From Deltaproteobacteria bacterium CG_4_8_14_3_um_filter_43_13 (lineage in GTDB: Bacteria; Desulfobacterota; UBA8473), in contig PFIF01000184.1 of NCBI GenBank assembly GCA_002782605.1, forward strand, positions 1 to 38,389: DNA of 38,389 bases, read 5' to 3'. Shown here in pieces: positions 32,506-35,199 of the stretch. Made by a program: the position numbers and the translations under genes. The notes under the pieces are model-generated. The model saw only the letters and a list, made by a program, of their open reading frames with translations. It made no database searches and was not told the origin of the DNA. Within the stretch, counting starts at the first letter, position 1, and every line of letters begins with the position of its first letter.

Positions 32506-35199
32506 CTCAAATTTAACTCGACAGGTCTTCCAGCCCAATGAGTCATGCCTGGAAAGCTGTGCCAGGTTGATAAGATTCCGTGAATCGTTGTCATTAAAAG
32601 CCACTGGGACAAATATCAGCCCCGCTATTAATCCATCTCTCAGTCTGATCCCTCTCTCTACTGCCCCATATCGGGAAATGACCCGAACAGCGTCCCCATC
32701 ATGCAAATTTAATTTTGTCCCATCTTTGGGGGATATCTCTATCTCTCCCTTCAAATCAAACTCCTGAATACGCTTGGAACGGCTCGTCCGAGTACCGCTT
32801 CCCAAATGGTAACGGTAAGACCCGAGGATAGCCGTCAAAGGATAAACATCATCAGGCACTTCATCTTCGGTGGAAACAACAGGAGAAAAAGGAATCAAGT
32901 CTCCTTTCCCATCGGGGCGGAAGCGAGCCTTTTCACTCGTTTCCCTGATCCAGGGCGTGTATCCATGCCCACCCGGATCCGCATACATAGGCACAGACCC
33001 AATGATTTCTTCCCTTACCCTTTCCAGAGAACTGTAGTGTTTGGAATACCCCATCTTTTCAGCAAGAAGGGCCAGGATTTCCCAGTCAGGTTTGGCATCT
33101 CCCGGTGGAACTACTACGGGTGTAAAGGTTTGAATCCTTCCTTCCATATTCGTAAATGAACCGCCCTTTTCGCAGAAAGCGGCGCCTGGCAGAACCACAT
33201 CTGCAATCTCGGCGGTTTCGTTTGCGAGGATATCTTGAACCACTACAAAATCTAATTTCTCCAGGGCACTGCGAACCCGTTCAGGTTGAGGGAGACTCCG
33301 GAGGGGGTTTTCCCCCATGATGTACAATGCTTTTAGGTTGCCTTTCTCGGCTTCCTCGATCATTCTGACCATATTGAGACCTTGATCGGGCGAAATCTTT
33401 GCCTGCCATACCCGTTCCCATTGTTTTCGCGTTAAATCATCACTCAGAGACTGACCACCCGGCAATCCGTATGGCACCGCCCCCATATCCTGTGCACCCA
33501 ATTGATTGTTTTCCCTTGCAAGAATATACAGACCGGCCCCTTCAGTTCCAAGGCTTCCGGTCATGAGTGAGAGGTTAATGATAGCCTCTAGACACTCCCG
33601 CCCATATCTCTGCTGCAGGATTCCATGCCCAACCACGAAGGCAACCTTTTTCCCGTGTAACAACTCGGCAGCCTCTTCAATAGTACCCACATCTATAGAT
33701 GTTACCCGGCTAATTCTGTCAATGTCCAGGGAAGAAAGCCCGCGACGGTACAGGTCAAACCCCTCTGTAAACTGGATTATGAAATCAGAGGCGTATGCCT
33801 TTTTCTGGTACAGCAGCATAGCCAGAGCGTTGATCAATTCAAGGTCGCTCCCGGGAAAAACACGGAGCCAGATAGATGAGAAGTCCACCAATTCCGTGCG
33901 CCTTGGATCAGCAACTATTAAGGGAATGCCCTTCTTCGCAGCCCTTTTGAGATAATAGCTCACCACAGGAACCGAGTGATTTGGGTCCGCACCAAGAACA
34001 AAAATGGCATCCTCTTTCTCCAGCCGAGCAAGGGGCTGAATACGGTACCCCCCGTCTGTTTTTTCATCAATGAGATTCAAGAGGGACTGCCCGGACACAT
34101 AGCCACCATTGTCCACGTTATTTGTTTCAAGAACAACCCTTGCTATCTTTTGAAAGAGGTAATTTTCCTCATTTGTGCATTTGGAGGAACCTAAAAATGC
34201 CACGTTTTGTGGGCCGTTTTCCCGTTTGATTTCAAGAAGCCGTCTTGCAACAACCTCCAGTGTCTCACCCCATGAAGCGGAAACCAGCTCGCCATCTTTG
34301 CGAATCAAAGGACTGCGCAACCGTTCACTGGCATTGAGAAAGTCATGGGCAAAGTGGCCCCTGACACAGAGGGTTGCCCCATTAACCGTGTCGGATATGT
34401 GTGATGGGTTGACCTCTATAACCTGTTCATCCACAACACCCATAGACAGAGAACAGCCTACACCACAGAATCCGCAGATAGAACGAGATTCCCTCTGAGG
34501 AGTACCTACGTAACGTGTATTATTCGGGGACAATGCCCCGGTGGGACACATTGACACACAGGTGCCGCAAAAGGTGCAGTCAGAATGCTCTAAGCCCAGA
34601 TCATGAAGCGCGACAGGGCGGGATTTAAAGCCTCTCTGGTTATAATCTATTGCCCCCACAACAACCAGTTCATGGTCTGCCCGGATACACTTTCCACACA
34701 GGATACATTTGGAGAGATCCCTGATAATGAAAGGATTTGCCTGTTCCAGTGGTTTGTAGTTGGGCATAGGGTAAAGGTTTGTCTCCCCTATACCGAGTTT
34801 AGCGGCTATCTGACGCAACTGACAGCGGTTCCCTTTGCTGCAAAATATACAGGACTCCGGATGTTCAGCGATCATCAGCCTGACTATATTCCGCCTGTGC
34901 TTATTTACACGGGGTGACTCTGTCAGGATACTCATGTCCTGGGCCACTGGCGTAACACATGACGCCATGATACGGCCGGCCTTCTCATCTTCTACCAGGC
35001 AGAGACGACAGGCGCCAAACGGTTTAAGGTCAGGATGATAGCAGAGTTTGGGAATCTGTATACCGTGCTGCTCTGCAGCCTCCAGAATGGTTGTTCCGGG
35101 CGGACAGGTGATATTTCTCCCATTAATGGACAGCGTTATGTTTTCCAAAAAACTAACTCCTTTTGGATTCGGGGTCAGACCCGTAGCAATATAACCCAA
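32470..35199 (-). CDS. FdhA/NuoG-like Fe-S plus molybdopterin-oxidoreductase-fold subunit lacking the catalytic Cys/Sec-His
   Basis: The cofactor motifs seen are: 2Fe-2S ([18 protein letters not shown]), a His-ligated 4Fe-4S ([14 protein letters not shown]), 2x[4Fe-4S] ([21 protein letters not shown]), and a MopB 4Fe-4S (CGFCGVGCS...LCVRG). The protein has the MopB body and a C-terminal barrel. At the FDH active-site position it reads [13 protein letters not shown] instead of NNVD.CAR(L/V)(C/U)H. The likely true start is TTG 35148, with AAGGAG 8 nt upstream, giving [11 protein letters not shown]... Confidence 0.8.
   Translation of the reverse strand: [909 protein letters not shown]

Follow-up and report, generated by a model that had tools for sequence, protein, structure and literature searches.

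A formate dehydrogenase alpha-subunit homologue that lacks the active-site residues and is encoded in an operon with MetV and MetF is probably an iron-sulfur wire

Introduction

FdsA/Fdh1A, the alpha subunit of the NAD-dependent formate dehydrogenases (FDHs) of R. capsulatus (6TG9/6TGA) and M. extorquens (7VW6), is the closest described counterpart of a protein encoded in the DNA analysed here, a stretch of 38,389 nucleotides (the window; contig PFIF01000184.1, assembly GCA_002782605.1) from Deltaproteobacteria bacterium CG_4_8_14_3_um_filter_43_13, a member of the Desulfobacterota. This FdhA/FdsA-like protein, encoded on the minus strand at 32470..35148, has the same length, domain order and iron-sulfur (Fe-S) cluster set as FdsA, including the cluster FS0. 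For R. capsulatus FDH, the residues named in the main text of its paper are limited to Cys386, His387, Arg587 and Val592. In the window protein, in contrast, the first three are Ser, Gly and Ala, the Lys adjacent to FS0 is Arg, and one cluster is predicted to be Asp-ligated. The two systems also differ in their partner subunits, which are HydBC-like rather than FdsBG-like in the window, and in that genes for MetV and MetF follow. An initial annotation of this stretch had noticed the Ser-Gly pair and had proposed that the protein was more likely an electron-transfer scaffold resembling NuoG, or a Ser-ligated molybdoenzyme of different chemistry, than a formate dehydrogenase.

NuoG of complex I is an Fe-S wire with a molybdopterin-enzyme fold, from which cofactor and catalysis have been lost. 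In the Bfu-type transhydrogenases, StnC of S. ovata (8OH5) and NfnA of C. saccharolyticus (9BOV) contain an inactive FdhF/NuoG-like scaffold or wire that is combined with a bifurcating HydBC-like core and an NADPH module of the GltD/NfnL type. StnC has an FdhF-like domain that was described as 'catalytically inactive' (PMC10482914), and in NfnA the 'pterin binding site is incomplete' and 'no pterin density' was reported (PMC11829005). HydA of the bifurcating NiFe-hydrogenase HydABCSL (A. mobile, 7T2R) is a NuoG-like Fe-S subunit that connects a BfuBC core with a catalytic module separate from it.

The electron donor of MetVF-type methylenetetrahydrofolate reductases (MTHFRs) is still debated in those parts of the literature that address it (PMC8760232, PMC8515935). 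In their passages on this subject, Yi et al. 2021 (PMC8515935) noted that metFV of Dethiosulfatarculus sandiegensis is preceded by 'NuoEFG homolog' genes, found the arrangement 'widely in Desulfobacterales and Chloroflexi', and termed it the 'X type' (group III) MTHFR, which they speculated to be bifurcating and which 'has not been studied'. The window operon, with its NuoEFG homologues directly upstream of metV-metF, has the arrangement that they described for Desulfobacterales and Chloroflexi. Those passages label the large subunit a NuoG homologue and do not describe an FdsA origin, a dead active site, the Asp substitution, the GltD fusion or intact relatives. We found no purification or assay of this complex in the literature searched, where only Yi et al. 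2021 mention it, in their speculation on an 'X type'; it is not described in Sewell 2017, Strittmatter 2009, Timmers 2018 or Smith 2021. Methylene-tetrahydrofolate (methylene-THF) does not come up in the Bfu survey by Schut et al. 2022, and Murali 2023 reported only fdhF2 beside nfnB in Seep-SRB1g.

Thus, inactive FdhF-like wire domains (StnC, NfnA, NuoG) and the operon arrangement itself were already known. Added here are the variability of the Ser position, the replacement of the active-site Arg and of a cofactor-proximal Lys, a Cys-to-Asp change at an Fe-S ligand, a quantified shift of constraint, a single origin of the inactive proteins, and their intact, MetV-linked relatives. The lost Arg and Lys, the Cys-to-Asp ligand and the MetVF operon context go beyond the initial annotation. 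From the sequence comparisons that follow, we consider it likely that the FdhA-like protein is a catalytically dead descendant of an NAD-linked FDH alpha subunit that serves as a non-catalytic Fe-S wire and scaffold in an X-type MTHFR complex with MetVF.

Active-site residues of the FdhA-like protein

The FdhA-like gene likely starts at the TTG codon at 35148, because an AAAGGAG Shine-Dalgarno sequence lies 8 nt before it and the resulting product of 892 residues is equal in length to the database representative of this protein (P0001). An alternative TTG at 35199 would give 909 residues (open reading frame (ORF) 32470-35199). The encoded domains are, in order, a [2Fe-2S] domain, a His-ligated [4Fe-4S] domain, two ferredoxin-type [4Fe-4S] domains, the FS0 [4Fe-4S] domain and molybdopterin-oxidoreductase domains II-IV. 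The corresponding Pfam assignments (Fer2_4, NADH-G_4Fe-4S_3, two ferredoxin-type 4Fe-4S domains, Molybdop_Fe4S4 (PF04879), Molybdopterin (PF00384) and Molydop_binding (PF01568)) make up the complete set of an NAD-linked formate dehydrogenase alpha subunit. The top matches among solved structures were alpha subunits of NAD-dependent FDHs (E 1e-142 to 1e-130), and relatives carry the database names 'formate dehydrogenase alpha subunit' or 'molybdopterin-dependent oxidoreductase'. An AlphaFold2 (AF2) model (pLDDT 84, pTM 0.86) gave Foldseek TM scores of 0.90 to both 7vw6_A and 6tg9_A and of 0.72-0.75 to NuoG chains of complex I; since this output came without coordinates or ligands, only the overall fold was compared. 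As modelled, the fold is still that of an FDH alpha subunit, and the four-domain molybdopterin-oxidoreductase fold with its FS0 cluster is present.

At the site of the catalytic Cys or selenocysteine (Sec) and the adjacent His, the canonical N-N-(V/I)-D-H-C-A-R-L-(C/U)-H-x-x is replaced by a stretch (34084..34122, minus strand) that ends in NGGYVSGQS, the latter encoded by AAT (34110), GGT, GGC, TAT, GTG, TCC (34095-34093), GGG (34092-34090), CAG and TCC (34086-34084). Direct translation upheld the reading of Ser (TCC) at the Cys/Sec position and Gly (GGG) at the His position, although with the likely start codon the Ser is residue 352 and not 369, as it had been numbered. The register, originally set by eye, was also correct, because two kinds of alignment place the pair on Cys-or-Sec and His. 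A HMMER alignment to R. capsulatus FdsA (6tg9_A, E 4e-140) puts the motif on TNNTDTCARVCHSP, with Ser on Cys386 and Gly on His387; HMMER alignments to two further solved FDHs gave the same register, and a MAFFT L-INS-i alignment that included E. coli FdhF put Ser on Sec140 and Gly on His141. The 892-codon frame contains no in-frame TGA by direct translation, so that selenocysteine recoding was rejected, as the initial annotation had also concluded.

The changes extend to other residues of the active site. The initial annotation had proposed a check of the conserved active-site Arg; this residue (Arg587 of R. capsulatus FdsA) is Ala (GCA, 33519-33517) in the window protein, where A-R-E takes the place of R-G-Q in the canonical PLRGQNNVQG (33511..33519, minus strand) and an Arg stands one residue later. 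The Lys of the C-x-K-G motif (Lys44 of E. coli FdhF), which lies between FS0 and the pterin and was present in 100% of canonical FDHs, is Arg (AGG, 34360..34362, minus strand). Further motifs of the molybdenum (Mo) domain are replaced as well, namely FGSGAMTN, GxNTxExHP, MGITQH, TNTERR, TGRxLxHxHTG, SRRG and FHFxE...N, among which GxNTxExHP, MGITQH, TGRxLxH and FHFxE...N are signature segments of domains III and IV. In all, about 45% of the FDH-invariant residues of the Mo domain are replaced.

Profile scores agree with these substitutions. Against the Fdh-alpha model TIGR01591, the window protein scored 516.6 bits, compared to a curated cut-off of 666.25 bits and to 910.2 bits for an intact-site relative (L058, described below). 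The protein has neither the Cys/Sec ligand nor the catalytic His and Arg of an FDH, and the part of the earlier proposal that it is not a formate dehydrogenase therefore stands. Most likely, to judge from its sequence, it has no active Mo/W centre and would be unable to oxidise formate. It did not score as NuoG of complex I either (362.3 bits on TIGR01973, equivalog cut-off 470.05), and no nuoA-N genes were found among the ORFs of the window.

Conservation of the Fe-S chain and divergence of the Mo domain

A search of a 5.8-billion-protein collection returned 120 homologues of the FdhA-like protein at 64-91% identity, all from Desulfobacterales/Thermodesulfobacteriota metagenomes. A second, more distant clade without the Cys/Sec-His pair (39-45% identity) consists of proteins from Dehalococcoidia and one Bacillota metagenome-assembled genome (MAG) and carries the motif NGSRLY(N/S/G). 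We refer to these two groups as the dead clades. Among the 118 close homologues that were readable at the active site, the His position was Gly in 115 and Glu in three. The Lys position of C-x-K-G was Arg in all 120, and the pair at the Arg position was most often AR (72), followed by AK (20), SR (5) and TR (5).

The initial annotation had described all five Fe-S motifs as intact. This description held for 19 of the 20 Cys/His ligand columns, which were 100% conserved in canonical FDHs and both dead clades, and failed for one: the first CxxCxxCxxxC motif has Asp (GAC, 34675..34677, minus strand) in place of its fourth Cys. In the ferredoxin fold, this fourth position supplies a ligand to the [4Fe-4S] cluster that is otherwise bound by Cys one to three of the second motif. 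Asp occupies this position in 30 of 31 Desulfobacterota-type and 11 of 15 Dehalococcoidia-type dead FdhAs and in 104 of the 114 readable database homologues (Cys in the other 10), compared to Cys in 29 of 30 canonical FDHs. The Cys-to-Asp change is thus specific to these clades, and the cluster may as a result be ligated by Asp or be convertible to [3Fe-4S], with a shift in its potential. The four Cys of FS0 (C225, C228, C232 and C261 in the 892-residue numbering; 34366..34476, minus strand) are all kept, as they are in 100% of the canonical group and both dead clades.

To compare the two parts of the protein, we took as invariant every position that was conserved in at least 90% of 30 canonical FdhA sequences with the Cys/Sec-His pair. 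Of these positions, 43 lie in the N-terminal Fe-S domains, where the window protein retains 0.98, and 210 lie in the Mo domain, where it retains 0.56. For calibration, Mo-domain retention was 0.70 in E. coli FdhF, 0.50 in NapA and 0.27 in NuoG, a comparison that does not settle whether the cofactor is present. Across the dead clades, retention was 0.94-0.95 in the N-terminal Fe-S domains, and in the Mo domain it was 0.53 in the Desulfobacterota clade (clade A) and 0.68 in the other (clade B). The median ratio of Mo-domain to Fe-S-domain divergence was 0.75 in canonical FDHs versus 1.75 and 1.64 in the two dead clades. Constraint has therefore shifted from the Mo domain to the Fe-S chain.

Several replacements in the window protein are the same as those in E. 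coli NuoG: C-x-R-G for C-x-K-G, GxD for GxN, N(x)EGR (NEGR) for TNTERR and YH-LGSG for YH-x-HTG. These shared changes, the variable ligand position and the faster divergence of the Mo domain favour the scaffold option of the initial annotation and, taken as a whole, a Mo domain that is a structural remnant without cofactor. Compared to NuoG, the window protein has retained both ferredoxin-type clusters and a far larger share of the Mo domain.

The operon and its partner modules

The FdhA-like gene belongs to a series of overlapping or closely spaced minus-strand genes in the order MetF2, FdhA-like, NuoE-like, NuoF::GltD, MetV, MetF. The NuoE/HydC-like [2Fe-2S] subunit (170 residues; 31789..32301; PF01257) is followed by a NuoF/HydB-like::GltD/NfnL-like fusion protein of 1044 residues (28668..31802; Pfam and PDB matches), the start of which overlaps the end of nuoE. 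MetV (DUF5981; 217 residues; 28018..28671; PF12225, E 1e-34) overlaps the end of the fusion gene by 4 nt and precedes MetF, the MTHFR (295 residues; 26985..27872; PF02219, E 1e-38). The operon is headed by MetF2 (35248..36174; PF02219, E 1.5e-13), a divergent second member of the MetF family located directly upstream of the FdhA-like gene.

The NuoF part of the fusion has an N-terminal [2Fe-2S] domain (2Fe-2S_thioredx), an FMN/NADH site and a [4Fe-4S] site, and the GltD/NfnL-like part has two [4Fe-4S] sites, FAD and an NADPH site. Residues 27-560 scored 771 bits to the B subunit of the A. mobile hydrogenase (7t2r_B), which is the best solved match, and 656-698 bits to HydB/NfnB/StnB; FdsB (365-420 bits) and Nqo1 (369 bits) were far more distant matches. 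Residues 563-1036 scored 350 bits to NfnA (9bov_A) and 322 bits to StnC (8oh5_C), aligning with residues ~103-567 of these proteins. The NuoE-like subunit scored 155 bits to bifurcating HydC (8a6t_C) and 148 bits to NiFe-HydC, compared to 96-107 bits to FdsG and 92 bits to NuoE. By these scores, the NuoE and NuoF parts are closest to the electron-bifurcating HydBC/NfnBC/StnAB proteins, and both features of Bfu-type B/C partners, the N-terminal [2Fe-2S] domain on B and affinity to HydB/HydC, were found. The C-terminal ferredoxin-type 2x[4Fe-4S] domain of BfuB (clusters B3/B4) has been reported to be required for bifurcation (PMC11829005). The matches to BfuB end at residue ~560 of the fusion protein, where a GltD-type Fer4_20 2x[4Fe-4S] domain follows.

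The assembly differs from its described counterparts in several respects. The GltD module is inserted in the A subunit of the StnC/NfnA enzymes, whereas here it is fused to the C-terminus of NuoF, the B subunit. The A subunit in the window is of the full-length FdsA type (478 bits to FdsA versus ~228 bits to StnC/NfnA), and MetV-MetF are added to the operon. Compared to 7T2R, the terminal module is MetVF instead of a NiFe hydrogenase, and the A subunit of 7T2R is shorter (692 residues) and more degenerate (225 bits).

We searched for the operon proteins by tblastn against 80 loci from GTDB species genomes. The order FdhA-like, NuoE, NuoF::GltD, MetV, MetF was found in ~30 Desulfobacterota loci, among them those of the isolate Desulfoluna limicola ASN36 and of ORM2a, a benzene degrader, as well as one on a Desulfobacterium scaffold. 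Dehalococcoidia loci had it too. The Cys/Sec-His pair was missing in every FdhA-like gene of this arrangement. MetF2 (69-80% identity) preceded the FdhA-like gene in 23 Desulfobacterota loci and was absent from at least five Desulfobacterota loci (L008, L013, L019, L021 and L029) and from all of the Dehalococcoidia loci. Loci at or below 39% identity had the canonical HCARL(C/U)H and PLRGQNNVQG motifs, mostly in the order NuoE, NuoF(::GltD), FdhA and mostly without MetVF nearby. In ten loci (L060, L061, L062, L067, L070, L073, L077, L078, L080 and L084), NuoE and NuoF::GltD precede a canonical Sec- or Cys-FdhA gene; the fusion is therefore not specific to the dead clades, and it also serves apparently true NAD(P)H-linked, possibly bifurcating, formate dehydrogenases.

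The host genome, a 2.57-Mb MAG that is 91% complete, encodes DsrA (above cut-off), the carbon monoxide dehydrogenase/acetyl-CoA synthase and five MTHFR-family loci, and by this gene content the host is a sulfate reducer with a Wood-Ljungdahl pathway. Two canonical FdhA genes are encoded elsewhere in the genome (G000 C212:4055-5314 and C195:806-2083; L001 and L002), one with HCARLUH, in which the ligand residue is encoded by an in-frame TGA, and the other with Cys (HCARLCH), so that formate oxidation is covered without the window protein.

Origin of the dead clades

In maximum-likelihood trees (IQ-TREE, LG+G4, with SH-aLRT branch support), the two dead clades together were monophyletic (SH-aLRT 100), and the active site was therefore lost once. 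The stem of the Desulfobacterota clade is long (0.72). The closest relatives of the dead clades are MetV-linked FdhAs with intact sites, which form one clade with them at a support of 100. In one such locus, from Dehalococcoidia CG2_30_46_9 (L058; 7998-12268), the FdhA stop codon lies within a 4-nt overlap with the start of MetV, and MetF comes next; in a second (L090; 6001-11759), the order is FdhA, MetV, a histidine kinase and MetF. Neither has NuoEF, and their FdhAs carry HCARLCH or NCARLCH plus LRG(Q/H)NNVQG. These FdhA-MetV-MetF sets are candidate formate:methylene-THF oxidoreductases. These closest relatives also include the FdhAs of two Dehalococcoidia metagenome contigs with an intermediate arrangement (L088, 3055-13547; L089, 2189-12623), which encode a TOBE-type ABC transporter resembling those for molybdate or tungstate, an intact FdhA, NuoE, a HydB-like NuoF without GltD, and MetV, with MetF on the opposite strand 1-2 kb off.

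Because the closest intact-site relatives are MetV-linked, the linkage of FdhA to MetV predates the loss of the active site. One tentative evolutionary series would begin with an intact FdhA wired directly to MetVF, as in FdhA-MetV-MetF operons that would encode a soluble formate:methylene-THF oxidoreductase. It would continue through an intermediate FdhA-NuoE-NuoF-MetV form and arrive at the present form, in which the formate site is dead, the GltD/NADPH module has been added and a bifurcating or confurcating, folate-reducing Bfu enzyme may have resulted. If this series, which we regard as a possibility rather than as the expected history, is true, the complex in its current form would be the first Bfu-family enzyme that reduces a folate, and methyl-/methylene-THF redox chemistry would be coupled to NADH, NADPH and possibly ferredoxin through an exapted FDH Fe-S chain with an Asp-ligated cluster. 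The existence of intact-site relatives also indicates that a catalytic subunit was exapted into a wire, in parallel to the origin of NuoG.

A proposed role and its alternatives

In the model that we favour, a single operon would encode a complex of three parts: NuoE with NuoF::GltD, the dead FdhA-like wire, and MetV-MetF. The HydBC/BfuBC-type NuoE and NuoF module would carry flavin mononucleotide (FMN) and react with NADH, and the GltD/NfnL-type module fused to NuoF would contribute flavin adenine dinucleotide (FAD) and an NADPH site. The FdhA-like protein would be a BfuA-like scaffold and Fe-S wire, comparable to NuoG, StnC and NfnA, with the MetV-MetF methylene-THF reductase at its opposite end. 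Electrons would pass along the [2Fe-2S]/[4Fe-4S] chain, probably leaving or entering through the invariant FS0 beside the dead pterin site, and the Asp-ligated cluster may have a tuned potential. In a complete oxidiser, the complex could run from methyl-THF to NAD(P)+, an uphill direction that would depend on confurcation with, for example, reduced ferredoxin; under autotrophic conditions, it would operate in the opposite direction.

Several points weigh against this interpretation. Genes that share an operon need not build one complex. The Mo domain of the AF2 model is well folded, with pLDDT mostly above 90. Among 85 positions common to canonical FDHs, FdhF and NapA, 64% are kept, compared to 39% in NuoG. 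The segments GENP, VVQD, ETA..A..LP and EK.G.FTN.E.R of the Mo domain are also kept, although this point is weakened by the fact that NuoG keeps several of the same segments. Finally, the cultivated Desulfoluna limicola ASN36 (L029:8001-10658) has Cys at the ligand position (NGGFLCG), although His and Arg are still lost. The Fe-S ligand of this protein is Cys rather than Asp.

Because the pan-family positions and these segments are kept, pterin or bis-molybdopterin guanine dinucleotide (bis-MGD) could still be bound without a protein ligand, with or without Mo/W, as a structural element or as a terminal redox centre near MetV. Arsenite oxidase holds a bis-MGD without a protein ligand. The completely conserved FS0 Cys and the confidently folded Mo domain would suit this explanation, as would the strong conservation of the replacements themselves: Gly at the His position (115 of 118), Arg at the Lys position (120 of 120) and the Gly in TN.EGR. 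Against this, signature segments in domains III and IV have been substituted, clade A is variable at the DPR and PGTD motifs, several changes are those of the cofactor-less NuoG, and constraint on the Mo domain is relaxed. In addition, the Fdh-like domains of NfnA and StnC are cofactor-free. We therefore regard retention of the cofactor as unlikely.

We also give a rather low probability to the possibility that the FdhA-like protein, NuoE and NuoF::GltD form a stand-alone NADH/NADPH/ferredoxin transhydrogenase of the Stn/NfnABC type that is merely co-transcribed with MetVF. The domain inventory of StnABC/NfnABC is matched, with GltD shifted from the A to the B subunit; the Fdh-like branch is a dead end in NfnABC of C. 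saccharolyticus (PMC11829005); and Wood-Ljungdahl genes often cluster without forming complexes. However, in two phyla the FdhA-like clade is always followed by MetV-MetF, and intact-site relatives adjoin MetV even where NuoEF are absent (L058, with its 4-nt overlap, and L090). In the window, MetV overlaps the stop codon of NuoF::GltD. Moreover, according to the portions of PMC8760232 that treat them, MetVF enzymes alone have no physiological NAD(P)H site. These observations are more easily reconciled with a wire that leads to MetVF, although the physical association itself would be a prediction from gene order.

The second option of the initial annotation, a Ser-ligated Mo/W-bisMGD enzyme with non-formate chemistry, analogous to dimethyl sulfoxide and trimethylamine N-oxide reductases, appears very improbable. 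It would account for the Ser of the window protein and of 79 of the 118 readable close homologues, and the fold and several MGD-domain segments are kept. However, the same position is Phe in 21, Tyr in eight, Ala in seven and Leu in three, that is, in a third of these homologues, and it is Tyr in 15 of 15 Dehalococcoidia-type relatives. A metal ligand would be expected to be invariant, and we conclude from this variation that Ser is not a metal ligand. In every close homologue, Arg replaces the Lys that connects the pterin with FS0, the Mo domain evolves faster than the Fe-S domain, and the scores on models of Ser-type enzymes were far below their cut-offs (dmsA_ynfE, 107.7 versus 777.7; torA, 68.6 versus 1465; bisC, 131.6 versus 1017.55), so that neither the invariant Ser nor the score expected of DmsA, TorA and BisC was found. 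A decaying FDH pseudogene, for which the lost catalytic residues, the accelerated evolution of the Mo domain and the stem branch of 0.72 might speak, was rejected on the conservation data, namely the unbroken 892-codon frame, the 120 homologues at 64-91% identity, the 19 of 20 invariant Fe-S ligand columns and the conserved synteny in two phyla.

If the FdhA-like protein is a wire, counts of FDHs that include it in metabolic reconstructions of marine sulfate reducers and Dehalococcoidia are probably wrong. The operon also offers a testable answer to the question of how methylene-THF reductase is energetically coupled in organisms with a Wood-Ljungdahl pathway, including complete-oxidising sulfate reducers and Dehalococcoidia.

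Additional observations

The window protein has ~9 more C-terminal residues than its homologues. Upstream of the intact FdhA gene of Dehalococcoidia CG2_30_46_9, a 72-residue ORF (L058:7783-8001) with a C-T-G-C-S motif (…AASCTGCSVSLLN…) looks like the N-terminus of a hydrogenase small subunit. In the window, the gap between the FdhA-like stop codon and nuoE (32337-32470) contains a heptamer-like repeat array (…taactggtaactgataactgataactga…) with gtgcctttg repeats on its flanks.

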